A DNA stretch of 39,138 bases, taken from positions 1-39,138 of the forward strand of contig JAHDBS010000004.1 in NCBI GenBank assembly GCA_020630225.1, given 5' to 3'. The notes beneath the pieces are model-generated. The model made no database searches. It saw only the letters and a list, made by a program, of their open reading frames with translations, and was not told the DNA's origin. How positions within the stretch are numbered: position 1 is the stretch's first letter; each line of letters opens with the position of its first letter. Both the position numbers and the translations under genes were made by a program. Shown here in pieces: positions 3,546 through 29,702 of the stretch. The stretch is from Anaerolineales bacterium (GTDB lineage Bacteria; Chloroflexota; Anaerolineae; Anaerolineales; UBA6668).

Positions 3546-4490
3546 ATGTCTTCAGCTGTCATCATTCATAATCCAGTTTCAGGTCGCTTTCCAGCGTTAC
3601 CGCTCATTGAGCAAAGTGCAGCCATCCTCCGGGATTATGGTTGGTCTACAGATATTCTACTCACTGAGCAAGCTGGTGACACATCTAAATTGACCAGACT
3701 TGCCCGCGACAAAAACAAAGATGCCGTCTTCATTGCTGGCGGTGATGGCAGTCTTGGCACAGCAGCCAACATTTTGAAGGGCAGTGACACTGCGCTAGGC
3801 GTTTTACCAACGGGCACAGCCAATGTTTGGGCCCAAGAGTTGGGCTTGAATTATGCTAAACATCCTTGGACAACGGCACTAACAAATGCAGTCACAGCCC
3901 AGCTAGAAGGCGAAATTCGCAGTATTGATGTTGGTATTTGCAATGATCATGCCTTTCTGCTTTGGGCTGGATTTGGCTTTGATGCGCACGTTGTCGCTGG
4001 AGTAGAACCCCGCCAACCACTTGAGAAAAAGTTTGGCAAGCTCAGCTATGCCGCCAAAGGTCTTTGGGCATCTACCTCATGGGACCCAACCCCTTTCAAA
4101 ATTCATACTGCAACACGCACTTATGAAAATGACTTCCTTTTTAGCGTAGTCACTAACATCCAGTTATACGCTGGCGGCCTAGCAAGATTAGACCCCGAAG
4201 CCAGAGTAGATGATGGCAAGATTACGCTTTGGGCATTCGAAGGTGACCATTTCCTAGACGCCTTCATTCTTGCTTCACGCGTGCTTCAGAATGCACACTT
4301 TGAACATCCAGAAACCGTCATGAAGCTCGGAACAGAATTTCGGATAGAAGCCCAACGCCCTATCCCGCTACAGCTTGATGGCGAAGTCATGGGCCACACA
4401 ACTGAAGCCAATATCCGCATTGAACCCAATGCGCTCAAAGTCTTCAAAACCACGACCGTCAACCCTACTCTATTTCGTAATACGGATTAG
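3546..4490 (+). CDS. Diacylglycerol-kinase-family lipid kinase (YegS/BmrU-like)
   Basis: 314-aa ORF. DAGK catalytic-domain motifs AVFIAGGDGSLG and LPTGTANVWA, with the typical 2-domain length. Confidence 0.8.
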   Translation: MSSAVIIHNPVSGRFPALPLIEQSAAILRDYGWSTDILLTEQAGDTSKLTRLARDKNKDAVFIAGGDGSLGTAANILKGSDTALGVLPTGTANVWAQELGLNYAKHPWTTALTNAVTAQLEGEIRSIDVGICNDHAFLLWAGFGFDAHVVAGVEPRQPLEKKFGKLSYAAKGLWASTSWDPTPFKIHTATRTYENDFLFSVVTNIQLYAGGLARLDPEARVDDGKITLWAFEGDHFLDAFILASRVLQNAHFEHPETVMKLGTEFRIEAQRPIPLQLDGEVMGHTTEANIRIEPNALKVFKTTTVNPTLFRNTD

Positions 4491-4511: not shown

Positions 4512-7124
4512 ATGTCAAACAATTTTCAATCGGCGGCAGATTGGCCAATGGCAGGTGCTAACTCCAAACGCACATCATGGTCACCTGAAGAAGTCAGCGG
4601 ACAATTATTCCCAAATTGGTTCAAGCCGTTTGAGGCTTACATTTCGCAAAAAGTGCAATTGATTGCCGCTGATGACAAAATTTTTGTCGCTACGGCAAGC
4701 GGGTTATATGCAATCAATGCTGAAACTGGCGCAGAAGAATGGTTGTATGCAACCTCGCGACCGTTAGGGCACTCCCCTACTATTCAAAATGGCATTGCAT
4801 ATGTTGGCGGGCTAGATGCTTACGTACACGCAATTGATATTTCATCTGGCGCAGGAGTTTGGACATTTGCCGCAAGCGGCGGTTTTCAAACTAGCCCGGC
4901 AATTGACGACAACACTATTTATTTAGGTGATCGATCCGGTATGTTTTATGCCATTGCCATTGATGGCGAAGAAGCGGGAACCTCTCGTTGGCAATTTCAA
5001 GCAGCCGGTCCAATCTTATATTCCGCCGCACTTAGTGATAGCCAAGTCTTTTTCGCAGCTGAAGATGGCGCTGCTTATGCACTAGACAAAGCAACAGGGG
5101 CTCTAAATTGGAAAACAGAACAGCTACCTGGGGCTGGATTTCAATCTTGGTGGCCAGTTATATATGAAGACTATGTCATCTTCAGCGGAAGTAACAACTA
5201 TCGAACACGGATTGCCCCCGGCTCAATTCGCAGTCACCTACACGACTGGGAGCTGGATGAACTGTACCTGAATCATGAAGCTGCACCTAAAGGCAAGCTG
5301 ATCGGGCAGCTTGGGCAGCGTCCAGGCAAATGGGCAACAAACACACCCACTATTGATGCTACCCCAACCTTAGACTATCTCACCGCCAAACCTTGGCGGC
5401 GTAGCGTATTTGTCTTAGATCAAGAAACTGGTGAAGAAGCTGGCATCGCACCCATTGCTTGGTCTTGGACACACAACGGAACGCGCTACCCCCCAGTCAT
5501 TGGCGGCGACGGCGCGTTATATACCCAAAACAGTTACCTTTCGGATCCGGCCATTGCGGGCGGACACGTAAGTGGCTGGGAACCTAACTCCCCTTACATT
5601 AGCCTCATTAGCGCTGATTGGAATGCAGTAGACGAACCAATGGGGGTTTCTGCTGGTGGCAACACAGTCTATTGGAATTTATGTTGCGATCGTGAAGCAG
5701 GTTCAATGGACATTAGCCAACCAGAGCAATTATTTCCTAATCGCTATCGCAATGGGATTCTGCCATCTACTGGTGACACAGACCCTGCAAGAGAGTGGCG
5801 CTACTTCAATTACAGTCTTGCGACGAGCGTGCCGGGATATGACGAGTATTTCCATAATGGGCAAGCACATCTTGCTTACGGCGGCCCAAATGGTACCTAC
5901 GGCAACCATGGTGATGTAAACGCTCCCATCCCTTACAAAGGACGCGTGTACATGCATCGCGGCAATTCTGTAATTGCCTATAGCCCTGATACTGCTCCGG
6001 TTGCCGCTGCATCAGCAAGCAAAATTCACAGCCAAGAGACCCAAGCGCCAACGCCTAAAACCCCAGACACCTTGCGTCAAATGCTTAGTGCAGAAGTTGC
6101 TGCCTTACTCAATGCTGGTCATATGCGACCCGGTTACACAAGTCATGGCGTTCTTGACCTGTGGCAAAGCAATATTTTGGGTGATGACTTCTCAGATTAT
6201 TTCCATCAGCCTGCCGACACCATGTGGACGTTACTGCTCGCTATTCCACATTTAGATAACAGCTTACGTGACCGCGCACGCGACTACCTCCAAAGTGAAT
6301 ATCGTGATTATCGGCCACACTTGGTCAACCATATTGGATGGGATGGCGCTGCTAGAGAGGCCTTCGCATTGCCGCCGGAAGTTGTCGAAGAACTCGCAAA
6401 CAATGGGCAAAAAGAGAAGAACTGGGTCTTCATGGAACAAGGCGGTCCAAATGGCAAAGGCGTTTGGGGCACAAACCCGTTCGCGTTTTATGTGCTTTGG
6501 AAATATGCCCAAGAGTTTGATATTGCAACTAATCTATGGACAACGGTCAATGGGTCGCTTGAACGCCCACCAAAACGCAGCGTACTGGAAAAAATGCCGT
6601 ATGCACACAATGCATTTATTGCTGGCTACATGGGGTATTTAGAACTACAAAAGCTTGCAGGTAAAACGCCTTCTCGTTTAGTCCAACTCCGCCTGCGCCG
6701 CCTCATCAGCCTGCGGTTACGCAATTTCAACTTTGATGCCGGTTTTGCCAACGACCCTGTGCAAGCCTATGGCAACAGTTTCAATGTAGAAACTCAATTT
6801 ATGTATCTAGTGCCAGAATTAGCACAACTGATGCGCAAGCGCATTCCAGAACAAGTTGACGCCACCCTCCGCAAAGCTAAAGCCCTTGCCCCAATGTGGT
6901 TTGTTAGCGGTGCTCAGGAGGCTGTTCTAGAGAATTCCATTGCTCCATTAGGTCAAGCCCAGGCGTTGTTTACAGCAACAGCCTGGCTAACAGAGACATC
7001 AGCAGAAGAGCTCTCAACATATGTAGATGCCCCGTTCTTTGCACGCGGAGATCTGTATTACATACAAAAACTGGCACTAGCGCTAGATGCTTACCAACGC
7101 AATCCGATAGAAGGATCTGAATAA
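4512..7124 (+). CDS. PQQ-like (BamB-type) beta-propeller repeat protein with about 350-aa helical C-terminal domain of unknown function
   Basis: 870-aa ORF, 21 nt after the lipid kinase. Repeated blades carry the A-x-D-x-x-T/S-G-x-x-x-W signature (YAINAETGAEEW, HAIDISSGAGVW, YALDKATGALNW, FVLDQETGEE). No N-terminal signal peptide or TM is visible. Confidence 0.7.
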   Translation: MSNNFQSAADWPMAGANSKRTSWSPEEVSGQLFPNWFKPFEAYISQKVQLIAADDKIFVATASGLYAINAETGAEEWLYATSRPLGHSPTIQNGIAYVGGLDAYVHAIDISSGAGVWTFAASGGFQTSPAIDDNTIYLGDRSGMFYAIAIDGEEAGTSRWQFQAAGPILYSAALSDSQVFFAAEDGAAYALDKATGALNWKTEQLPGAGFQSWWPVIYEDYVIFSGSNNYRTRIAPGSIRSHLHDWELDELYLNHEAAPKGKLIGQLGQRPGKWATNTPTIDATPTLDYLTAKPWRRSVFVLDQETGEEAGIAPIAWSWTHNGTRYPPVIGGDGALYTQNSYLSDPAIAGGHVSGWEPNSPYISLISADWNAVDEPMGVSAGGNTVYWNLCCDREAGSMDISQPEQLFPNRYRNGILPSTGDTDPAREWRYFNYSLATSVPGYDEYFHNGQAHLAYGGPNGTYGNHGDVNAPIPYKGRVYMHRGNSVIAYSPDTAPVAAASASKIHSQETQAPTPKTPDTLRQMLSAEVAALLNAGHMRPGYTSHGVLDLWQSNILGDDFSDYFHQPADTMWTLLLAIPHLDNSLRDRARDYLQSEYRDYRPHLVNHIGWDGAAREAFALPPEVVEELANNGQKEKNWVFMEQGGPNGKGVWGTNPFAFYVLWKYAQEFDIATNLWTTVNGSLERPPKRSVLEKMPYAHNAFIAGYMGYLELQKLAGKTPSRLVQLRLRRLISLRLRNFNFDAGFANDPVQAYGNSFNVETQFMYLVPELAQLMRKRIPEQVDATLRKAKALAPMWFVSGAQEAVLENSIAPLGQAQALFTATAWLTETSAEELSTYVDAPFFARGDLYYIQKLALALDAYQRNPIEGSE

Positions 7125-12950: not shown

Positions 12951-13655
12951 ATGAACGTCTTTACTAACGAAACTATTTTCAATCGACGCGTACAAATTGC
13001 AAAAATCATGCGTCCGCTTGCCTTCGCAACTCTCATTGGTGGGCTAATTTTGCTGTACTTACGCGAAGATCTTCTGCTTGTCTCTTGGCTGATGGCCGGG
13101 CTCGGGTACTTACTTTCTATTGTTTCAGCGCACATGGGTGGCCGCTTCTTGGAGCTACCAGGCCGGATTATGCCGTTCGATGCTGTTCCAGATGCGCTCA
13201 AAGGTCTCGGAGAATCGCATCGCTTGTACCAGCTATACATGCCCGCTAATCACGTGTTAGTGGCGCCATCTGGTGTCTATGTCATCAAGCCACGAGATCA
13301 TGTTGGAACAATTAACTGGAATGAAAAGCGCGGCCGCTTTGAACACGTTGGCGAACGTATGATGAATCGCATTTTTGGCATTGATCGCTTTGGCCGCCCA
13401 GACAAAGAGTTGACGGCTGACATCAATTCAGTGTCTAGTCGTTTAGAAAGTTACTTTGGAGAAGAAGCACCAATGGTCAAAGGCATTATTTTATTGACCA
13501 ATCCTAAAACCAAAACCGGGTCAATGACACAAACCCCTTATCCAGTCGTGAAAAGCAAAGGTTTGAAGAAGTACTTGCGTGAACAAGGCAAAGGTGAGCG
13601 ACTTTCACAAACACAAATTGAAGAGATGGAAACCCGTCTTGGACTGCATGCGTAA
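12951..13655 (+). CDS. Membrane protein with degenerate NERD-like (nuclease-related) domain; function uncertain
   Basis: 234-aa ORF 3 nt after fabF. Two N-terminal TM helices. The core HVLVAPSGVYVIKPRDHVG resembles the NERD strand-loop-strand, but the acidic residue of the E-x-K motif is missing. The CDS is confident, the family assignment is weak. Confidence 0.45.
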   Translation: MNVFTNETIFNRRVQIAKIMRPLAFATLIGGLILLYLREDLLLVSWLMAGLGYLLSIVSAHMGGRFLELPGRIMPFDAVPDALKGLGESHRLYQLYMPANHVLVAPSGVYVIKPRDHVGTINWNEKRGRFEHVGERMMNRIFGIDRFGRPDKELTADINSVSSRLESYFGEEAPMVKGIILLTNPKTKTGSMTQTPYPVVKSKGLKKYLREQGKGERLSQTQIEEMETRLGLHA

Positions 13656-13719: not shown

Positions 13720-14493
13720 ATGGAACAACTTACCCCCTTATTAGTACCATTTCTGACCTTAGCCGCACTTGAAATTGTGCTCGGCATTGATAACGTCATT
13801 TTCATTACAATTTTGGCCGACAAACTGCCTAAAGAAGACCGCCCGCGCGCGCGTCGACTTGGGCTTGGCTTGGCAGTCATCAGCCGTATTGTTCTACTAT
13901 TCGGGATTGGCATTATTGTCCGTCTAACGCAACCACTATTCGAAATTGGTGGTCATGGCTTTTCCGGGCGAGACATCTTACTGCTGCTTGGGGGTCTGTT
14001 CTTAATTGCCAAAAGCACCCGTGAAATTCACCACAAGCTTGAAGCACAGGATGATGCCCACGGCAATACATCTGGTGTCGCCACGATGGGGGCCGTTCTA
14101 GCGCAAATCATGCTGGTGGATGTTGTATTTTCACTCGACTCTGTGATCACAGCTGTTGGGATTACAGATAACCTGCCTGTCATGATTTCAGCTGTTCTTT
14201 TAGCTGCAGCAATCATGGTGATCTTTGCTGACCCAATTGGTGACTTTGTTGAACGACATCCAGCATTCAAGATCTTGGCATTGGCCTTCCTCATTATGAT
14301 TGGGGCGCTGCTGGTCATTGAAGGGTGGGATCATGATCTTGTCAAAGAATTCAAGATCAAGAATTACATTTACTTCACTATGGCATTCTCAGTAATTGTG
14401 GAATTTATACAGCTCCAACTCAAGCCGTCGAAAGATCCAGTGAAGTTGCATAACCAACCTTCACTGAAGAAAGATGGTGAAGACGCCCACTAG
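13720..14493 (+). CDS. TerC-family integral membrane protein
   Basis: 257-aa polytopic ORF. LEIVLGIDNVIFITILA and VVFSLDSVITAVG are the duplicated TerC signature motifs. Confidence 0.85.
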   Translation: MEQLTPLLVPFLTLAALEIVLGIDNVIFITILADKLPKEDRPRARRLGLGLAVISRIVLLFGIGIIVRLTQPLFEIGGHGFSGRDILLLLGGLFLIAKSTREIHHKLEAQDDAHGNTSGVATMGAVLAQIMLVDVVFSLDSVITAVGITDNLPVMISAVLLAAAIMVIFADPIGDFVERHPAFKILALAFLIMIGALLVIEGWDHDLVKEFKIKNYIYFTMAFSVIVEFIQLQLKPSKDPVKLHNQPSLKKDGEDAH

Positions 14494-14527
14494 CAAACGC
14501 GGCGAATTGCCAATAAATAGTAAAATG

Positions 14528-14560
14528 AAAGCCCCGACCAATTCGGGGCTTTTTTTATTT
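14528..14560 (+). terminator. Strong rho-independent terminator-like hairpin after terC, abutting the tgt start codon
   Basis: AAAGCCCCG-ACCAATT-CGGGGCTTT followed by TTTTATTT. The ATG at 14561 follows directly. Confidence 0.8.
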
Positions 14561-15643
14561 ATGGCTCTTACTGAACTTAGCACCGCCAACGGTACTGTCC
14601 AACTTCCTGCATTTGTCCCAGACGGGACGCGCGGCGTCGTTCGCACACTTGATGCAAACGATCTCCGTGCAGTCAAGATTCAACAGGTGCAAATGAATGT
14701 GTATCACCTGATGCAATCCCCTGGTACAACCACAATTCAGGCCTTAGGTGGCTTGCATAAGATGAGTGGTTGGCATGGCCCCATCAGTACAGATTCAGGC
14801 GGATTTCAGGTCTATTCGCTCATCCGGCAGAATGCGAAATTTGGAACGTTGACAGACCAAGGCGCTATCTTCCGAATTGAAGGCCGCAAGTTCAAGCTAA
14901 CCCCAGAAAAAAGCATTCAATTACAACTTGCTTACGGCGCAAATGTGTTGTTTTGCTTAGATGACTGTACCCATGTCAGTGACTCAATGGAAGAGCAGCG
15001 GAAATCTGTTGCGCGCTCCATTGCTTGGGCCAAACGCTGTCGCAAAGAATTCGAGCGCTTACAGGCCCAAAAGAATGCCAAACCAGCCAAACTTTATGCT
15101 GTCGTCCAAGGTGGCAACAGCGCAGAGTTACGCACCGAGTGCGCTGAATCATTATTAGAGATTGGCTTCGAAGGGTATGGGTATGGCGGTTGGCCCTTAG
15201 ATGACGATGGCAATCTTGTGAGTGAAATGCTGCAGCTTACGCGTGACCTAATTCCAAGCGACTATGCTTTGCACGCCTTAGGGGTAGGACATCCAGCTAA
15301 TGTTGCTGCTGCATCTCACATGGGATATACCCTCTTTGACAGCGTCATGCCAACCCGCGACGCTCGCCATGGACGGTTATATACCTTTACAAAAGATCCA
15401 AATGAAGCCACTCTGACTGGCAAAGACTGGTTCAAGTACATCTACTTAACCGACAAAAAGCATCTCAAGACAGCAACGCCAATCTCAGAATATTGTGACT
15501 GTCCAGTTTGCCAGACATACAGTTTGGGGTATGTGCATCACCTTTTCAAAATCAAAGATGCCCTAGCCCCCCGCTTTGCAACCTTGCACAACCTGCGCTT
15601 TATGACGCAGTTGATGGAAAACTTGCGTCGTGAACTACGTTAG
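14561..15643 (+). CDS. tgt: tRNA-guanine transglycosylase (TGT) family protein, divergent
   Basis: In-frame ATG (M30 of track ORF 14474-15643). The upstream extension would translate the terminator hairpin. Motifs: TDSGGFQV, VVQGG, LFDSVMPTRDARHG, and zinc site CDCPVC...H. Non-canonical FVPDGTRG and GYGGWPLDD replace FMPVGTxG and GGLxVGE. Confidence 0.8.
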   Translation: MALTELSTANGTVQLPAFVPDGTRGVVRTLDANDLRAVKIQQVQMNVYHLMQSPGTTTIQALGGLHKMSGWHGPISTDSGGFQVYSLIRQNAKFGTLTDQGAIFRIEGRKFKLTPEKSIQLQLAYGANVLFCLDDCTHVSDSMEEQRKSVARSIAWAKRCRKEFERLQAQKNAKPAKLYAVVQGGNSAELRTECAESLLEIGFEGYGYGGWPLDDDGNLVSEMLQLTRDLIPSDYALHALGVGHPANVAAASHMGYTLFDSVMPTRDARHGRLYTFTKDPNEATLTGKDWFKYIYLTDKKHLKTATPISEYCDCPVCQTYSLGYVHHLFKIKDALAPRFATLHNLRFMTQLMENLRRELR

Positions 15644-16436
15644 TCCTGAGGCATTAGCAGCAACGATTACTGCTATTCAACAGAACAAGCAATACGCCAC
15701 CATTGATGCGAATTTAGTCGAACGCATCGCACGTGAAGAGTTGGCCAAACGCACTAACAAAAAAGAAGTTGTCAAACATGCGCGTAGCCGGCTAAGACAA
15801 GCGGGCACAGCTTATTTCAAACGGCAAATCAACTATCAGCGGGCACTGGAACAGCTCCAAACAGCGACAGCATTAGACACGCAAAAAGCCGCTTGCCGTG
15901 ACATCATGGCTTTGCATACATCTACAGCCGAAAGACTAGACATCCTAGATGATCTATTTGCCACGCTTAGCCAACATTTACCGCCAGCAACGTCCGTTTT
16001 AGATATTGCCTGCGGGCTAAATCCGCTTACTATTCCGTGGCAGTCTTTAGAAAAAGACGCAACGTACTATGCTGTCGATATCTTCGCTGACATGATGCAA
16101 TTCTTGTCCAAGGCAATCCCTTTACTTGGGCGCACTGGACAGGCAACGGCAGCTAGCGTTATTCCTGACGTCCCCATCTCCACAGTTGATGTCGCTTACA
16201 TTTTCAAAGCCATTTCTTGTCTTGAGCAACTTGATCCTAATGCCGGAGAACTGCTGTTGCATGGTCTCAATGCTAAGCATATTGTCGCAACATTCCCACT
16301 CCAAAGCTTAGGCGGACGCAAAAAAGGAATGCTAAATACCTATCAGGCGCGTATGGCAACGCTCACTCACGACCAACCTTGGACCGTCAAAGAGTTCATT
16401 TTTAACACCGAGTTGGTTTACATCATTGAGAAATAA
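15630..16436 (+). CDS. FmrO/Rmt-Arm family 16S rRNA methyltransferase-like protein, copy 1 (m7G1405-type family)
   Basis: 268-aa ORF. GTG start overlapping the tgt stop by 14 nt. Motifs as I recall them in RmtB/ArmA: NKQYATID, LHTSTAERL, VLDIACGLNPL, YYAVDI, DVAYIFK, TFPLQSLGGRKKGM, TELVYIIEK. Confidence 0.8.
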   Translation: MNYVSPEALAATITAIQQNKQYATIDANLVERIAREELAKRTNKKEVVKHARSRLRQAGTAYFKRQINYQRALEQLQTATALDTQKAACRDIMALHTSTAERLDILDDLFATLSQHLPPATSVLDIACGLNPLTIPWQSLEKDATYYAVDIFADMMQFLSKAIPLLGRTGQATAASVIPDVPISTVDVAYIFKAISCLEQLDPNAGELLLHGLNAKHIVATFPLQSLGGRKKGMLNTYQARMATLTHDQPWTVKEFIFNTELVYIIEK

Positions 16437-16437
16437 G

Positions 16438-17244
16438 ATGGCCGGAGCAAAAGAAGCAACACAAACCCGCGTCATCGAAAGCCTGTTGGGGTCCCGTAAA
16501 TACGCGGCTACCGCGCCAGAAACTGTAACCGCTTTGGTCCGGCTAGAGGCCAGCAACCATAAGTCGGCAAAGGCGCTCGAAAAAGCGGTTCGTAAACATC
16601 TACACAACATTATGGCGCCCTATTTGGGTGATCCAGATTATCCGCAAGCAGCTATTCAACTCACGGAAGCATTCGCAGAGGGACAATCACAAGCGAATAC
16701 ATTGCTACTCGAATTCCTTAGCATGCATGAGTCAACCAAAGAACGCTTGCCCATTTTGACGCAATTCTTTGCCGACATCTTTGCAATTACCGGCGTTCCG
16801 AACACCGTCTTGGACTTAGCTTGTGCACTCAATCCGCTCGCTTTTCCGTGGATGGGCTTAGCAAATGACGCAACGGTCTATAGCTACGACATCCACACAG
16901 AACGCATCGATTTTTTGAACACATACTTTGCATTGCAAGGTATTCCGCAAGCAGCCAAGTTACAAGATCTCGCTTTAGAGCTGCCAACAGAGCAAGGTGA
17001 TGTCGCGTTATTTCTCAAAGAATTACCGCGCTTTGAGCGGAACTATCAAAAGAAAGGGTGGCGCATGATTGATGCGCTAAATGTTAAGTGGGTCGTCATT
17101 TCATTTCCGACAGTCAGCTTGCACGGTGGTCGCTCTTTAGTCGAGCACTATCGTAATTATTTTGCTGAAAAAGCAGCTGCACGCAACTGGGAATACACCG
17201 AACTCATGTATCCAACTGAAATGGTATTTGTAGCAAAAAAATGA
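16438..17244 (+). CDS. FmrO/Rmt-Arm family 16S rRNA methyltransferase-like protein, copy 2 (divergent paralog)
   Basis: ATG 1 nt after the copy-1 stop (the track ORF begins at TTG 16426). Motifs [67 protein letters not shown]. Confidence 0.75.
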   Translation: MAGAKEATQTRVIESLLGSRKYAATAPETVTALVRLEASNHKSAKALEKAVRKHLHNIMAPYLGDPDYPQAAIQLTEAFAEGQSQANTLLLEFLSMHESTKERLPILTQFFADIFAITGVPNTVLDLACALNPLAFPWMGLANDATVYSYDIHTERIDFLNTYFALQGIPQAAKLQDLALELPTEQGDVALFLKELPRFERNYQKKGWRMIDALNVKWVVISFPTVSLHGGRSLVEHYRNYFAEKAAARNWEYTELMYPTEMVFVAKK

Positions 17245-17969
17245 GCGCTGGCCGATTCTTTGTTTCTCCCGACATGATCCATAGCGATCACGTTAGCCTG
17301 GATGCTGACATTGTGCGCCAACTTCGAAGCGTCCTGCGCATGCAAGTTGGCGATACCTGCACCTTACTAGATGGCTCTGGATGGGAATATACAGTCAAGC
17401 TTACTGAGCTTAGCAAAACCAGTGGTACAGGTACCATTGTTGACCGTGCTGAAAACCCAAACGAACCAGCGTTACACCTCACTTTGCTTCAAGGGGTGCT
17501 GAAGAAAGACAAATTCGAATGGATTTTGCAAAAGGGAACAGAGTTAGGCGTGAGTGCTTTTACACCAGTGATTATGGAGCGCTCTATCCGCACGGAAGTC
17601 AAGCCAAAGCTCATGCAGCGCTGGCAGAAAATTGTGCGTGAGGCCGCTGAACAATGTCGGCGTGGCAAATTACCCATCATTCATACCCCAATTGATTTTG
17701 AAACAGCGTTGGAAACGCTCACAGATTTCGACACAACGCTCTTACCTTGGGTGCAAGAAAATAGCAAAACAATAGGCGATCTACAGCACCTTGGGACATC
17801 AGCAGCGATTCTAATTGGCCCCGAAGGCGGATTCGCGCTACATGAAGTGCAAGCAGCAATCGATAAAGGTGCGCAACCAATTACGCTTGGAAAGCGAATT
17901 CTGCGAGCAGAAACGGCGTCAATAGCAACATGCACATTGGCACTTGCCAAAGGAGGTGACCTTGGCTAA
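17241..17969 (+). CDS. rsmE: 16S rRNA (uracil1498-N3)-methyltransferase RsmE
   Basis: 242-aa ORF with an ATGA overlap on the preceding gene. SPOUT-class RsmE motifs [23 protein letters not shown] and LIGPEGGF. Confidence 0.9.
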
Positions 17970-18657
17970 CGAAATCGAACCCAGTACGTTGTATCTCGTT
18001 GCAACACCAATTGGAAACCTTGGTGACATTACATTACGCGCCTTAGATATTCTCAAAGGGGTCAACATTGTCGCTTGCGAAGACACTCGTACAACTGGCC
18101 GCTTATTCAAACATTTTGGAATTGAAACACCAAAAACACCATTTCATGAACACAACAAAGATCGTGCGGCAGAAAAGCTAGTTGCACGGCTCGAAAGTGG
18201 TGAAAGTGTTGCGTTAGTCAGTGATGCAGGCACACCCGGTATTTCTGACCCTGCTTATGTACTCGTCCGAGAAGTTGTTGCAGCCGGCTTCAATGTTACT
18301 TCTGCGCCCGGTCCAACTGCAGTTATCCCAGCCCTAATTCTGTCGGGCTTACCTGTCCATTCATTCACGTTCCGGGGCTTTCCGCCACGCAAACCAGGCA
18401 AACGCAAACGGTTCTTAGAAATTGATATAGCCAGTCCGCATACATTACTGTTCTACGAAAGCCCGCATCGAATTGTGGCATTTTTAGAAAATGCGCTAGA
18501 AGTCTATGGTGATCGATCTGCAGCGGTGATTTGCGAGATCACCAAGAAGTTTGAAACTGTTGAACGCGGGTTACTAAGTGAGTTGATCTCTTGGGCTACA
18601 GAAGATGCTGATCTCCGCGGTGAGTTTGTCGTGGTAATTGAAGGAAATATAGCTTAG
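17962..18657 (+). CDS. rsmI: 16S rRNA (cytidine1402-2'-O)-methyltransferase RsmI
   Basis: TTG start 5 nt after AGGAGG (17951-17956), inside the rsmE 3' end (8-nt overlap). Motifs [36 protein letters not shown]. Confidence 0.9.
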
Positions 18658-18668
18658 TCAGAATCAAA

Positions 18669-18692
18669 AGCGCCATGGAAATCCATGGCGCT
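18669..18692. terminator. Bidirectional hairpin between convergent rsmI and the phosphohexomutase gene
   Basis: AGCGCCATGG-AAAT-CCATGGCGCT (perfect 10-bp stem). TTTGATTC follows on the minus strand. Confidence 0.7.
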
Positions 18693-25389: not shown

Positions 25390-27444
25390 ATGCCTACTTT
25401 TCTACGTCATTTTTATACAGCACTGACAACAGTGCCTAATACAACTAGCGATGAAATCACAACAAAGGATTCGCAACGCTGGGCGCTTTTTACAGCGGTA
25501 GCTGCCAGTATTGGTCTGCTTTTGGCAGGCATTGTCCTAAGTGACCTAATTTGGGTTGGCCTTGGCTCGCTTTGTGCCTTAATGGGACTGATCATTTGGA
25601 GAAAGCAACGTATTTGGTATAGCTATCTGAATACGCTCGTAATCCCCCTCATCATTGCTTACCGCTGGAAAGAATATACCTTTGCTAGTTCACTAGAGTT
25701 CTCTGCTGCCATTGGGTGGCTTCTCATTTCTAACTACATTGCGGCCGCATGGCTCTCTTTCAAGCACAATGCACTTATCACACTGATTCAAATTTCAGGG
25801 ATTGTCATCTTGGGAGAGCTTAAGACTGACCCAAGCATCCCATTCGCAGAGCTCTACATCAATCCCATTTTGTTGTATTTGCTGGGGGCGATTCTCATCA
25901 CTGTCCCTGTGTTTAGCTATCGACGCGCGCGGATGGAATATGACTCAACCTATGATCGCTTGCGTGAAAGTGAACAAGACTATCGACGTCTATTCGAGCA
26001 ACTACCAATTGGGATTTATCGGTCCTCAGTTGATGGCAAGCAACTTCGTGCCAACCCCACCCTTGTCAAATTAAACGGATATGACACGGAAGCTGAAATG
26101 TTGCGTTCAGTCAATGACATTGCCAAAGAATGGTACATAGACCCAAAGCGACGCTCAGAATTCACAGCAGCCTTGGAGCAAGACGGCAAAGTCAGTGAAT
26201 TCGAATCAGAAATTTTCCGGCATAAAACCCGAGAACGCATATGGATTAATGAATCTGCCTATCAGGTTTATGACGCCGATGGAAATACCCGCTTCTATGA
26301 AGGCACAGTCAAAGAAATTACAGACCGTAAGATTGCGCAGCAAGAAGTTGTTGATATCGCAACACAGCTACGGTTAATTACCAATAATATTCCGGCTTGG
26401 ATTAGCCAAATTGATCGAAATTTCAATTTTGTTTTTGTCAATCAATTTTTTGAAACACGACTAGGTATAAAAGCAGAGGACCTGATTGGCAAACCAGTCT
26501 CGATTTGGTTTTCTGAACGCGAGTGGCGCTACTTAGAAAGGCGTTTTTCGCGCGCAATGAAAGGCGAAACTATTGAGATCGAAGGCATTTCAACCACGCC
26601 CACTGGAGAGCAAATTTATACAAAAAATACGCTCATTCCAAATATTCAAGACGGTGAAGTCGTAGGGTGTTTTTCGCTTGGCATTGACCTTACACATCAG
26701 CGCGAAATGGAAATGACATTGCAGCAAATGCGCAAAGTCGAAAGCTTAGGAATGGTTGCTGGCGGCGTTGCGCATGATTTTAACAATCTGTTGACCGGCA
26801 TTATGGCGCAATCTTCAGTCGTGGCTTATAAGTTAGGCGACTCACACAGCGCTTCAAAAAATATTTCACGTGTGCTAGAAACATCACGCGCTGCAGAAAG
26901 ACTTGTGAAGCAACTCTTAGCATATACAGGTGATGAATACCTTCAATTTGCTGAAGTTGATCTCAATGCACTAGTAGAAAAGACTCTGACGCTAATTGAC
27001 CATGAACAACTGCAAGGGTCCGAGATTACTATTCAGCTAACGGAACCACTACGCACAATCCGTGCAGACGCAAGCAAAGTCGAGCAAATCTTAGTCAATC
27101 TCATCATCAATGGCGTACAAGCTATCGATCATAAAAGTGGTGAAATCCACATCGTAACACGTGCAGAATACATTGAAGGAAGTGACCCCGAATATACGCG
27201 GCTTACAGGTGAGCCGCTAGAGTCCGGTAATTATTGTGTTGTCACCGTAAAAGACAACGGAAAAGGTATTGCGCAAGATGCAATTCTGCAAATTTTTGAC
27301 CCCTTTTACACTACAAAATTCTCTGGACATGGACTGGGACTAGCTGCCGTGCTCGGAAATGTGCGCGCACACCATGGTGGTATTAGCGTTAAGTCTACTG
27401 TTGGGCAAGGTACCTGCTTCAAACTGGCCTTCCCAACTTACTAA
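25390..27444 (+). CDS. Sensor histidine kinase: polytopic N-terminal membrane domain, two PAS domains, HisKA, HATPase_c
   Basis: 684-aa ORF. About 6 TM helices in residues 30-180. PAS-like blocks RLFEQLPIGIYRSS... and ITNNIPAWISQID.... H-box GGVAHDFNNLLTGI. N/G boxes LVNLIINGVQA, DNGKGI, GHGLGLAAV. Confidence 0.85.
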   Translation: MPTFLRHFYTALTTVPNTTSDEITTKDSQRWALFTAVAASIGLLLAGIVLSDLIWVGLGSLCALMGLIIWRKQRIWYSYLNTLVIPLIIAYRWKEYTFASSLEFSAAIGWLLISNYIAAAWLSFKHNALITLIQISGIVILGELKTDPSIPFAELYINPILLYLLGAILITVPVFSYRRARMEYDSTYDRLRESEQDYRRLFEQLPIGIYRSSVDGKQLRANPTLVKLNGYDTEAEMLRSVNDIAKEWYIDPKRRSEFTAALEQDGKVSEFESEIFRHKTRERIWINESAYQVYDADGNTRFYEGTVKEITDRKIAQQEVVDIATQLRLITNNIPAWISQIDRNFNFVFVNQFFETRLGIKAEDLIGKPVSIWFSEREWRYLERRFSRAMKGETIEIEGISTTPTGEQIYTKNTLIPNIQDGEVVGCFSLGIDLTHQREMEMTLQQMRKVESLGMVAGGVAHDFNNLLTGIMAQSSVVAYKLGDSHSASKNISRVLETSRAAERLVKQLLAYTGDEYLQFAEVDLNALVEKTLTLIDHEQLQGSEITIQLTEPLRTIRADASKVEQILVNLIINGVQAIDHKSGEIHIVTRAEYIEGSDPEYTRLTGEPLESGNYCVVTVKDNGKGIAQDAILQIFDPFYTTKFSGHGLGLAAVLGNVRAHHGGISVKSTVGQGTCFKLAFPTY

Positions 27445-27587: not shown

Positions 27588-29702
27588 ATGATCAACTTTA
27601 GTTACAAGATCGCTAATTTTTTACGCATCAAAGAATTAGACAACGCAGATGAAATGATGTTCATGCTGCGGATGTATATCACTTTGGCAGCTTTTCCGGC
27701 ATCACTGTTAATGTTTGGAATTGCAACGCTTGAGCAAGATCTTGCGCTATATGGCTATGCATTTATTGTCTTCGGGATTTTTGCATTTGGCCGCACAAAA
27801 TACTACCCCTATATGGCCTATGTCATCGGCGTTCTTGTGCCGGTTATGATGACCTACTATGCTGATCAGGATGTCCTCATTGGGCCACGCGATATTACTG
27901 GCTCTGTGATGTGGATGATCATCCCGATTTTCATTGCAGCTAGCTGGGTTTCTGCCAAAGGCACGCTAGCAGTAACGTTTATCCAGTTGGTTGGCATTTT
28001 CGTGTTTGTCTTCATTCGGGCATCAGACACACTTGAGATTACACCCGGGCTATTTATGCGCCCAGTTGGCTTCCTATTCTTAGGCGCGGCTGCCATCACG
28101 AGCCCTGTTTATGGCTATCGCAGCGTGCGCAAACGGCTTGAAACAGCACATGGTCAGCTTATCCAGAGTGACAAAGAGTTACGCCGTTTATTTGACAACC
28201 TTCCCATTGGGTTCTATCGCACCTCAGCACAAGGCTCCATCCTAAAAGCAAACCTTAGTGCTATCAAAATTACAGGGCACAACTCCGAAGCAGAGTTGAT
28301 GGCCGATATCCAAACCGTAGAAAGCCAATGGTATGTTGATCCCAATCGACGTAAAGATTTTGTTACGCAAATGCAAACGCAAGGGTTTGTGAGCAATTTC
28401 GAATCGCCAGTGTACCAAGGTGAGGACATCATCTGGGTAAGCGAATCGGCATATCCAGTTTACAAAGACAATGGCGAGCTTGATTACTATGAAGGCGCTA
28501 TTCAAGATATTACGAAGCGCAAGACTGCCGAAGCATCACTCAATCACACCCTAAGCCAGATGCAGCTCATTAATGACAATATTCCAGCTTGGATTGCTTA
28601 TGTAGATGCTGACTACAAATTCCAATTTGCAAACCGCTTCTTTGAAGACCGCATTGGTGTGCCACAAGGCTGGATGATTGGCAAGCACGTTCGCGAATTT
28701 GTCGGTGAAGAATATTGGCAAAAAGCACAACCACAAGTCAAACGTCTTTTTGATGGTGAACCCATTGTGTTAGAAATCCCCGGGAAAACGCAAAGCGGCG
28801 ACGACATTTTCACCAGAGTTACCCACGTGCCGCATATTGCGAGCAATGGTGAAATTCCAGGGTACTTTTTACTAGGATTAGATATTACCGACCAGCGTCA
28901 AGCCGAGCAAACCATTCGACAACTCCATAAAGTTGAAAGTTTAGGCATGGTCGCCGGTGGCGTTGCTCACGATTTCAACAATCTATTGACAGGCATTATG
29001 GCTCAGTCTTCCATTGCAGTGCGCAAATTAGGTGAAGGCCATCCTGTTGCAAAAAACGTTCAACGTGTTTTGAACGCTTCGCGCAGTGCAGAACGCTTGG
29101 TTAAACAACTACTCGCCTATTCTGGCGACGAACACCTGAACTGCAGTTCAGTCGAACTCAATGGTCTAATTGAAAAGAGCCTCCAGAACGTAAGCTTTTC
29201 AACTGGACAACTGATCAATGTTGAGACTGATCTTTCTAATCAGATCCCACGCATTTGGGCTGACGACACGAAAGTCGAACAGATCATGATCAACCTCATT
29301 ACTAACAGTGCCCAAGCCATTGAAGAAACACACGGATTAATCAAAATCTCTACTGAGTTAGAGTACATTGCCGCTGGGGATAGTGCCTACGCCCGCTTGA
29401 CTGGTGAAGCTTTAGCCGCTGGCGAATACGTCGTTTTGACAGTCTCAGACAATGGCTGTGGCATTTCAAAAGACAAGCTGCTCCAAATCTTTGACCCATT
29501 CTTCACAACAAAATTCTCTGGTCATGGACTGGGCCTTGCTGCTGTTCTGGGCACCATGCGTGCCCACTATGGTGGCATTAATGTCACGTCGACTGTTGAC
29601 GTTGGCACCACTTTCTCTCTCGTTTTTCCTGTCAACCACCCTTTCGCTATTGATCAACATTTAGCGCCTGCTGAAGATCGCATTTTGGCTGTTGAAGCCT
29701 AA
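27588..29702 (+). CDS. Sensor histidine kinase, paralog of the preceding gene (same architecture)
   Basis: 704-aa ORF. Same motif order as the preceding gene (RLFDNLPIGFYRTS, INDNIPAWIAYVD, GGVAHDFNNLLTGI, DNGCGI, GHGLGLAAV). The kinase core is roughly 70% identical by eye and the N-terminal membrane domain much less. Confidence 0.85.
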   Translation: MINFSYKIANFLRIKELDNADEMMFMLRMYITLAAFPASLLMFGIATLEQDLALYGYAFIVFGIFAFGRTKYYPYMAYVIGVLVPVMMTYYADQDVLIGPRDITGSVMWMIIPIFIAASWVSAKGTLAVTFIQLVGIFVFVFIRASDTLEITPGLFMRPVGFLFLGAAAITSPVYGYRSVRKRLETAHGQLIQSDKELRRLFDNLPIGFYRTSAQGSILKANLSAIKITGHNSEAELMADIQTVESQWYVDPNRRKDFVTQMQTQGFVSNFESPVYQGEDIIWVSESAYPVYKDNGELDYYEGAIQDITKRKTAEASLNHTLSQMQLINDNIPAWIAYVDADYKFQFANRFFEDRIGVPQGWMIGKHVREFVGEEYWQKAQPQVKRLFDGEPIVLEIPGKTQSGDDIFTRVTHVPHIASNGEIPGYFLLGLDITDQRQAEQTIRQLHKVESLGMVAGGVAHDFNNLLTGIMAQSSIAVRKLGEGHPVAKNVQRVLNASRSAERLVKQLLAYSGDEHLNCSSVELNGLIEKSLQNVSFSTGQLINVETDLSNQIPRIWADDTKVEQIMINLITNSAQAIEETHGLIKISTELEYIAAGDSAYARLTGEALAAGEYVVLTVSDNGCGISKDKLLQIFDPFFTTKFSGHGLGLAAVLGTMRAHYGGINVTSTVDVGTTFSLVFPVNHPFAIDQHLAPAEDRILAVEA

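Follow-up and report, generated by a model that had tools for sequence, protein, structure and literature searches.

A TGT-family paralog paired with FmrO-type methyltransferases in a Chloroflexota RNA-modification operon

In a 39,138-nucleotide stretch of an Anaerolineales genome (Chloroflexota; assembly GCA_020630225.1, contig JAHDBS010000004.1, positions 1 to 39,138 of the forward strand; hereafter the window), five adjoining genes encode predicted RNA-modification enzymes: a protein of the tRNA-guanine transglycosylase (TGT) family, two S-adenosylmethionine (SAM) methyltransferases of the FmrO/Rmt family, here called FmrO-A and FmrO-B, and the 16S ribosomal RNA (rRNA) methyltransferases RsmE and RsmI. 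Comparison with related genomes showed that the conserved unit is the pair formed by the TGT-like gene and FmrO-A, not all five genes. By sequence comparison the TGT-like protein appears to represent a previously undescribed TGT subfamily, with a conserved partner that is likewise new. The coupling of the two points to a new RNA modification directed at the ribosome but falls short of proof. We give roughly even weight to reading the operon as a chromosomal housekeeping module for the decoding centre of the 30S subunit, in which the TGT paralog would work with FmrO-A on the ribosomal subunit.

The five-gene operon and its conserved core

The genes of the operon, in order, are:

14561-15643, plus strand: TGT-like gene (360 aa; stop codon TAG at 15641-15643), encoding a TGT-family paralog (PF01702, E = 1e-94)
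15630-16436, plus strand: FmrO-A, FmrO/Rmt-family SAM methyltransferase, A-type (PF07091, E = 2e-48)
16438-17244, plus strand: FmrO-B, FmrO/Rmt-family SAM methyltransferase, B-type (PF07091, E = 1e-49)
17241-17969, plus strand: RsmE, 16S rRNA m3U1498 methyltransferase (PF04452, PF20260, NF008692)
17962-18657, plus strand: RsmI, 16S rRNA Cm1402 2'-O-methyltransferase (PF00590, TIGR00096)

A first-pass annotation of this DNA had described five co-directional genes with junctions of -14, +1, -4 and -8 nt, and base-by-base reading bore this out. FmrO-A starts with a GTG at 15630 and overlaps the 3' end of the TGT-like gene by 14 nt, a gap of 1 nt precedes the FmrO-B ATG at 16438, and FmrO-B and RsmE share an ATGA, a 4-nt overlap with the RsmE ATG at 17241. 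RsmE and RsmI overlap by 8 nt, and the RsmI start, a TTG at 17962, has an AGGAGG (17950-17955) 6 nt upstream. Gene calls made independently on two close relatives, L001 (GCA_020630805.1) and L003 (GCA_020630175.1), gave identical starts and overlaps. A longer open reading frame (ORF) of the TGT-like gene, starting at 14474, crosses the hairpin upstream of the unit and was rejected, being unsupported by conservation or by the gene calls in relatives.

Inside the unit we found six short terminator-like stems (5-7 pairs, 3-4 of them G-C) and a lone promoter-like site (18023-18051), all weak consensus matches. Over the scanned region there were 10 terminator-like sites (shuffled mean 6.0, standard deviation 2.8) and 2 promoter-like sites (shuffled mean 6.2, standard deviation 2.8); these totals lie inside the shuffled expectation, and none of the internal sites is near the strength of the hairpins that flank the unit. 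The layout indicates that the five genes make up a tightly packed operon of RNA-modification enzymes with translational coupling. Overlaps by themselves are usual in operons, and it is the conservation of the arrangement over many genomes that goes beyond chance.

A scan seeded with FmrO-A, taking one genome per GTDB species, returned at least 585 related stretches, nearly all from Chloroflexota, and FmrO-A was found in Anaerolineae, Ktedonobacteria, Herpetosiphonaceae, Caldilineae, Ardenticatenaceae and Thermoflexales. Cultured carriers include Ornatilinea apprima P3M-1 (L071), Dictyobacter aurantiacus S27 (L035) and a Herpetosiphon strain. Gene order was counted in the best 80 of these at least 585 loci, 79 of which had room for an upstream neighbour. 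In 63 of these 79 the TGT-like gene was the next gene upstream of FmrO-A, and in another 5 it lay no more than 2.5 kb away; these counts are inflated by shared ancestry because they come from one phylum. A reciprocal scan of metagenome contigs, seeded with the TGT-like protein, placed FmrO immediately downstream in 54 of 67 loci with room for it and upstream in 3 more. The pairing held down to 42-48% identity to the TGT-like protein of the window. By a heuristic choice of start codon, FmrO begins before the TGT-like gene has ended in 96 of 125 loci and within 20 nt of its stop in 15 more. At locus L004 all other neighbours differ, and the pair is still present with an 8-nt overlap.

The two proteins are also found fused. 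P0209 (628 aa) joins a TGT-like domain to FmrO through a linker of about 12 residues and in locus L086 follows an overlapping rsmI; P0351 (667 aa, linker of about 55 residues) occurs in three metagenome-assembled genomes (MAGs). The two fusions are 39% identical, have different linkers and come from two lineages. A third protein, P0211 (710 aa), joins RsmI to the TGT-like domain and is followed by an overlapping FmrO gene.

Six loci, drawn from several lineages of Chloroflexota, show the exact five-gene order (L001, L003, L005, L070, L081 and L099), so the order is conserved in relatives of the window. The first-pass annotation had gone further and taken the five genes as a co-regulated set of enzymes made in stoichiometric amounts. 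The compact, coupled unit stands, but only the TGT-like/FmrO-A pair is broadly conserved, and the other genes come, go and shift. Enriched neighbours of the pair were RsmI (33 loci), RsmE (16) and an RsmF-like gene of the m5C1407 family (16). Almost all neighbours come from the methyltransferases of the 16S decoding centre. RsmI often lies directly upstream of the pair; FmrO-B lies downstream of it in about a quarter of loci, usually with RsmE next. In some Anaerolineaceae the cluster includes a gene for a YhhQ/QPTR-type queuosine-precursor transporter, in some cases between rsmE and rsmI, and L096 has the order YhhQ-RsmI-TGT-FmrO on one strand. The presence of this transporter is a hint of a 7-deazaguanine substrate.

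RsmE and RsmI of the window both scored at the equivalog level of their families. RsmE, with PUA and SPOUT domains (PF20260, PF04452), scored 200.7 bits on NF008692 (cut-off 196) and 176.5 bits on TIGR00046 (cut-off 41); RsmI, with the TP_methylase fold (PF00590), scored 215.7 bits on TIGR00096 (cut-off 167.9). All five proteins of the operon retain intact catalytic machinery. The earlier claim that the FmrO-type enzymes, RsmE and RsmI belong to families that target the decoding centre of 16S rRNA at helices 44 and 45 was supported. In model bacteria rsmE, rsmI and rsmF are scattered. The genes of E. coli and Thermus are matched here in that RsmE and RsmI pass the equivalog cut-offs and that other lineages have an RsmF-like gene in the cluster; they differ in that the Chloroflexota genes cluster around the TGT-like/FmrO pair and that in Anaerolineaceae the TGT-like gene is directly preceded by a second RsmI-type gene, which is divergent.

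Some variation in these neighbours was recorded in its own right. The RsmF-like gene follows FmrO-B in many loci, and the loci with RsmF-like or YhhQ genes include L022, L027, L030, L038, L046, L065, L066, L071-L073, L101, L103, L107, L114, L122, L124, L137 and L138; the window has neither gene. Loci of the Anaerolineaceae type contain two RsmI-type genes (L027, L030, L038, L046, L073, L103, L138, L146-L149, L153 and L154). One, directly upstream of the TGT-like gene, is divergent (31-37% identical to the RsmI of the window; TIGR00096 187.8 bits, above the cut-off). The other is a conventional RsmI (55-60% identical), a few kb off on the opposite strand. The presence of two such genes hints at a second target of 2'-O-methylation. 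FmrO-A or a divergent TGT-like gene also occurs on a few short contigs with non-Chloroflexota labels: a Roseobacter sp. MAG (L014), a Synechococcaceae MAG (L058) and a Niabella sp. MAG (L085). Their gene content is Chloroflexota-like, so mis-binning is likely, with horizontal transfer as the alternative.

The TGT-like protein and the FmrO-type methyltransferases

The TGT-like protein best resembles bacterial tRNA TGT (E = 3e-62 by sequence). Its AlphaFold2 (AF2) model had a predicted local distance difference test score (pLDDT) of 88.7 and a predicted template modelling score (pTM) of 0.89, and matched the TIM-barrel and Zn-subdomain fold of bacterial TGT structures (1Q2R, 2ASH and related entries) with a template modelling (TM) score of 0.85. 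On the equivalog model for bacterial Tgt, TIGR00430, the protein of the window scored 292.2 bits, under the cut-off of 306.75, and its relatives scored 279-309 bits, about half of the 518-531 bits reached by canonical Chloroflexota Tgt.

Residue by residue, the comparison with the Z. mobilis enzyme separated a conserved catalytic apparatus from an altered pocket. The TGT-like protein retains the catalytic Asp102 and Asp280, the guanine-binding Asp156, Gln203 and Gly230, together with Gly229, Arg286, Arg289 and the Cys3His Zn site, and all of these are invariant over the TGT-like clade. Val45 is replaced by Asp, Leu231-Ala232-Val233-Gly234-Glu235 by Trp-Pro-Leu-Asp-Asp (GGLAVGE to GGWPLDDD) and MGVGKP by LGVGHP, and there is a 14-residue insertion. 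The signature of the canonical preQ1 pocket (Val45, GGL[A/S]VGE, the Leu231-Ala232 peptide switch and Glu235) is thus not found in this protein. The proline at 232 removes the backbone NH that the canonical Z. mobilis enzyme directs at N7. The altered signature is shared by FmrO-adjacent homologs in about 70 other loci and by representatives chosen at 50% identity; Asp45 is the sole position that separates TGT-like proteins from canonical TGTs universally.

In a neighbour-joining tree built without bootstrap, 35 of 35 full-length Asp45 sequences fell into one split against 79-81 canonical TGTs; the split test was unrooted, as midpoint rooting was upset by root placement and truncated sequences. 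A canonical tgt with the GGLAVGE motif lies on the same contig as the TGT-like gene in L070 (Ardenticatenaceae), L062 and GCA_016716065.1, and the canonical enzyme is widespread among Ardenticatenaceae, Promineifilaceae and Anaerolineaceae. When canonical Chloroflexota Tgt was searched by tblastn against the 39-kb window alone, it matched just the paralog, at 31% identity. The first gene had initially been taken for the TGT that acts on tRNA G34. Its altered active-site signature, its separate clade and its coexistence with canonical tgt in at least three genomes contradict that assignment, and mark the protein as a separate TGT-family paralog, not the housekeeping tRNA-G34 ortholog. The conserved residues point to an active-looking, guanine-binding transglycosylase. 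What sets it apart from bacterial Tgt is, in addition, its coupling or fusion to an FmrO methyltransferase. Database names for the paralog are inconsistent, at times "tRNA guanosine(34) transglycosylase Tgt"; since it is sometimes annotated as Tgt, reconstructions of the queuosine pathway would be misled.

Other branches of the family were also considered. DpdA, the DNA 7-deazaguanine transglycosylase, offers a parallel as a TGT paralog that occurs alongside the housekeeping Tgt, has a gene cluster of its own and has presumably been turned to a different substrate. Here, however, dpdB-K genes are lacking and the partners are rRNA methyltransferases. Membership of the DpdA family (29 bits on NF041059, cut-off 200) and of the archaeosine TGTs (87 bits, cut-off 350) was rejected. 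As a separate observation, residues 53-67 of the TGT-like protein (window 14717-14761) were modelled with a pLDDT below 50, yet are nearly invariant in the subfamily (PGSSTIQALGGLH), and may form a mobile element that becomes ordered upon binding of a substrate or partner.

Both FmrO proteins contain the full-length FmrO domain (profile positions 3-255 of 255 of PF07091 in FmrO-A and 2-254 in FmrO-B), with the HxSTxER and SAM motifs, and are 30% identical to each other. They resemble the Arm/Rmt/Sgm enzymes that form m7G1405, but scored 202.8 (FmrO-A) and 196.1 bits (FmrO-B) on the Rmt equivalog NF000466, under its cut-off of 250. The best solved match to FmrO-A was Sgm (3LCU), with an alignment spanning residues 22-281. 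In the cryo-electron microscopy structure of RmtC on the 30S subunit, docking on helices 24, 27 and 45, distortion of helix 44 and positioning of G1405 were assigned to specific residues (PMC10054953). Those needed are K20, Y21, R50, H54, Y60, S107, D160, K204, R241 and M245, with His54 essential (PMC10054953).

We aligned RmtC, RmtB and ArmA, taken from plasmid records, with the Chloroflexota proteins. The A-type clade keeps Y21 in 73, H54 in 72 and Y60 in 71 of 74 sequences, and S107, D160, K204 and M245 in all 74; the B-type clade keeps the RmtC residues except that position 245 is Leu and 241 is variable. In the window, FmrO-B retains K20, Y21, R50, H54, Y60, S107, D160 and K204, with Leu at 245 and Gly at 241, and FmrO-A retains Y21, Y60, S107, D160, K204 and M245. 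Two FmrO-A substitutions, K20Q and H54R, are common to the window, L001 and L003. FmrO-A is also the fastest-evolving gene of the cluster, with 78% and 67% identity within this small clade against 93% and 85% for the TGT-like protein; across classes the TGT-like protein remains 60-66% identical, compared with about 40-46% for FmrO-A. The sequence data suggest that the function of FmrO-A is altered or relaxed in the lineage of the window, where FmrO-B is present.

A neighbour-joining tree without bootstrap recovered the A-type (75 sequences) and B-type (24 sequences) proteins each as monophyletic. RmtB, RmtC, ArmA and Sgm fell outside both clades, with Sgm nearest the A-type. The first-pass annotation had proposed that a drug-resistance-type methylation was domesticated into the operon. 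This finds no support, as FmrO-A and FmrO-B represent two chromosomal, phylum-wide clades with the resistance enzymes outside, and nothing mobile or biosynthetic lies nearby. If anything, the two look like ancestral housekeeping clades. This changes the view of the clinically important Arm/Rmt family, in that Chloroflexota hold two old, phylum-specific chromosomal clades inside a housekeeping operon, the A-type paired with a TGT paralog, and it bears on the origin of the resistance genes and on the role of m7G1405-type methylation without antibiotic.

Function of the pair

As a module acting on the 30S decoding centre, the operon would work as follows. Overlapping stops and starts would lead to co-production of the TGT-like protein and FmrO-A. 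Family membership and conserved N-terminal residues suggest that FmrO-A and FmrO-B would bind the 30S subunit once it is assembled and flip out a guanine from the top of helix 44, by homology G1405, for methylation at N7; RsmE would, by homology, make m3U1498 and RsmI Cm1402. The TGT paralog, taken from its context to be catalytically active and to bind a guanine-like base, would most probably act on the same particle as FmrO-A, where it would replace a guanine of the 16S decoding region or its vicinity with a different base, perhaps a 7-deazaguanine. The operon would be inherited vertically on Chloroflexota chromosomes. Since the canonical Tgt already performs the tRNA-G34 reaction in these organisms, the paralog probably does not duplicate it. 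In the fusion P0209, the 12-residue linker joins the TGT-like domain to the N1 subdomain of FmrO, the part that contacts the 30S subunit.

More specifically, the TGT paralog could be a transglycosylase of ribosomal RNA, which would be the first of its kind, docked on the 30S subunit next to an FmrO-type enzyme or in one polypeptide with it; we hold this proposal tentatively and at clearly less than even chances. We take the candidate exchange sites to be G1405, G1494, G1497 and the UGU at 1391-1393 (E. coli numbering). In one version, a 7-deazaguanine would be installed, so that the rRNA would contain a queuosine-type base. In a second version, FmrO-A would methylate N7 first, producing a cationic m7G with a labile glycosidic bond, and base exchange would follow; m7G as a leaving base is speculative and is suggested because Pro232 removes the N7-directed NH and Asp45 is added in the pocket.

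A number of observations count against joint action of the pair on the ribosome. Eleven of the 79 FmrO-A loci have no nearby TGT-like gene. Conversely, the divergent Asp45-clade members at L085, L090 and L091 (32-40% identity) and the core TGT-like member at L174 have no FmrO neighbour. In two related Chloroflexota, L012 (6161-7974) and L043 (6089-7942), unrelated genes have entered precisely at the junction of the pair, so that coupling is dispensable there. The AF2 model of a natural TGT-like::FmrO fusion folded both domains (pLDDT 88, pTM 0.61) and gave no confident interface, a result that is uninformative rather than negative because the multiple sequence alignment was block-diagonal. In FmrO-A of the window, K20Q and H54R fall on sites that are essential or important in RmtC. 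Since 7-deazaguanines cannot be N7-methylated, TGT action followed by FmrO action on one base is excluded if a 7-deazaguanine is inserted; either the two enzymes would act on different nucleotides, or methylation would come first and make m7G the leaving group. An Rfam search of the window and 10 related loci, covering preQ1 and yybP-ykoY riboswitches and other RNA elements, returned tRNAs only, and with them no riboswitch or other RNA marker of 7-deazaguanine in the clusters. N70, H73, Q107, R286 and R289, shared among canonical TGTs, are kept in the paralog, so that a substrate resembling the tRNA anticodon loop stays plausible. The assignment of a substrate to the paralog is, moreover, a comparative one.

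As for the two insertions, the L012 insert comprises an AAA-ATPase and a small partner of defence-like or toxin-like appearance and the L043 insert a 617-aa helical-repeat protein. They are unrelated to each other and were rejected as extra pathway members; the junction may be an insertion hotspot.

The alternative that survives best, which we regard as possible but doubtful, is that the TGT-like protein is a tRNA transglycosylase, acting on G34 with a different base, at another position or on a subset of tRNAs, and that the operon co-regulates modifiers of the anticodon and the decoding site, an amended version of the model in the first-pass annotation. It would account for the closeness to bacterial tRNA TGT in sequence and in fold, for the retention of catalytic, guanine-binding and shared RNA-contact residues, for divergent clade members that live without FmrO, and for the YhhQ-type queuosine-precursor transporter that sometimes adjoins. 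It does less well with the replaced preQ1-recognition residues and with the canonical Tgt in the same genomes, by which G34 is already served, and fusions to FmrO and RsmI, families that act on the 30S subunit, are hard to explain by co-regulation alone.

Intrinsic aminoglycoside resistance, with an Rmt-type m7G1405 protecting the ribosome and the other genes as passengers, appears improbable to us. Characterised members of the FmrO family do confer resistance through m7G1405, the closest solved relative, Sgm, comes from an antibiotic producer, and if G1405 is methylated then resistance to 4,6-disubstituted deoxystreptamine aminoglycosides follows as a by-product. Against this stand the phylum-wide distribution (at least 585 related stretches), clades that lie apart from the resistance enzymes and appear to have descended vertically, the lack of aminoglycoside biosynthesis genes, integrons and transposases in the 39-kb window, and the coupling and fusions to the TGT-like protein, which resistance leaves unexplained.

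TGT-family proteins are known to act as dimers with inactive partners, as QTRT2 does with QTRT1. That the TGT-like protein is such a non-catalytic partner or scaffold of FmrO-A, or that the adjacency is inherited synteny without function, has this precedent and the sampling of a single phylum in its favour, and is the least probable of the readings given the invariant catalytic Asp, guanine-binding residues and Zn site, the high conservation of the TGT-like protein relative to FmrO-A, the survival of the pairing at L004 and the independent fusions.

To our knowledge, tRNA is the substrate of all known TGT-family enzymes except DpdA, which acts on DNA, and we know of no base-exchange modification in ribosomal RNA. 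The full-text literature gave no account of this TGT subfamily, its pairing with FmrO, or 16S modification or aminoglycoside phenotypes in Chloroflexota; the sole match was a figure legend naming uncharacterised Chloroflexi Rmt homologs. The five-gene combination, which the first-pass annotation had suspected to be new, was likewise without a prior description in this literature. A conserved and highly constrained TGT paralog that is coupled or fused to 30S decoding-centre enzymes offers a concrete, testable starting point for finding a new class of modification, of rRNA or of tRNA, in a large and little-studied phylum. If the ribosomal-RNA reading is true, the reaction would be a possibly unprecedented base exchange on the ribosome.

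Flanking hairpins and chromosomal surroundings

Two hairpins flank the operon:

14527-14560 (stem-loop 14527-14553), plus strand: upstream terminator-like hairpin followed by a U-run; 11-bp stem with 6 G-C pairs
18669-18692, no strand assigned: downstream hairpin with a perfect 10-bp stem, between the convergent RsmI and PGM/GlmM-like genes

The claim that strong hairpins bound the unit on both sides was confirmed by folding, as both are far more stable than shuffled sequence. The upstream hairpin folds with a free energy of -19.1 kcal/mol (z = -4.8), and its T-run ends right at the ATG of the TGT-like gene; as the hairpin abuts the ATG, neither a Shine-Dalgarno sequence nor a spacer would fit. 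The hairpin is kept in L001 (~4100-4150) and L003 (~5370-5420), with a compensatory change from CCCCG/CGGGG to CCCTG/CAGGG. On its 5' side the window (14515-14563 region), L001 and L003 have ATAGTAAAAT in common, and the remaining spacer is not alignable. From its sequence the element resembles a terminator for TerC, the gene before it; it may also serve in attenuation, stabilise the 5' end or belong to a leaderless start. A sequence scan of the stretch from TerC to the TGT-like start codon found no sigma-70 promoter. Within the same spacer, L001 has tandem 7-nt GCTGATA units (~4040-4100) that are absent from the window and L003.

The downstream hairpin folds with -19.3 kcal/mol on the plus strand (z = -5.6) and -21.1 kcal/mol on the minus strand (z = -7.2), and has a U-run on the minus strand only. 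Because of this better folding and the U-run it probably also terminates the convergent PGM/GlmM-like gene, and we regard it as a probable terminator for both directions that is stronger on the minus strand.

The 39-kb surroundings are those of an ordinary chromosome, with plsX, fabF, TerC, the PGM/GlmM-like gene, xseA, murJ and sensor kinases. With nothing mobile or antibiotic-related in this stretch, a mobile or resistance-island setting was rejected. Between fabF and TerC lies an ORF of 234 aa (12951-13655) that has no Pfam or NCBIfam match and is conserved in L001 and L003 at the identical place and length. Further downstream, two adjoining genes (25390-27444 and 27588-29702) encode PAS-domain histidine kinases of 684 and 704 aa with similar architecture, which look like a tandem duplication.

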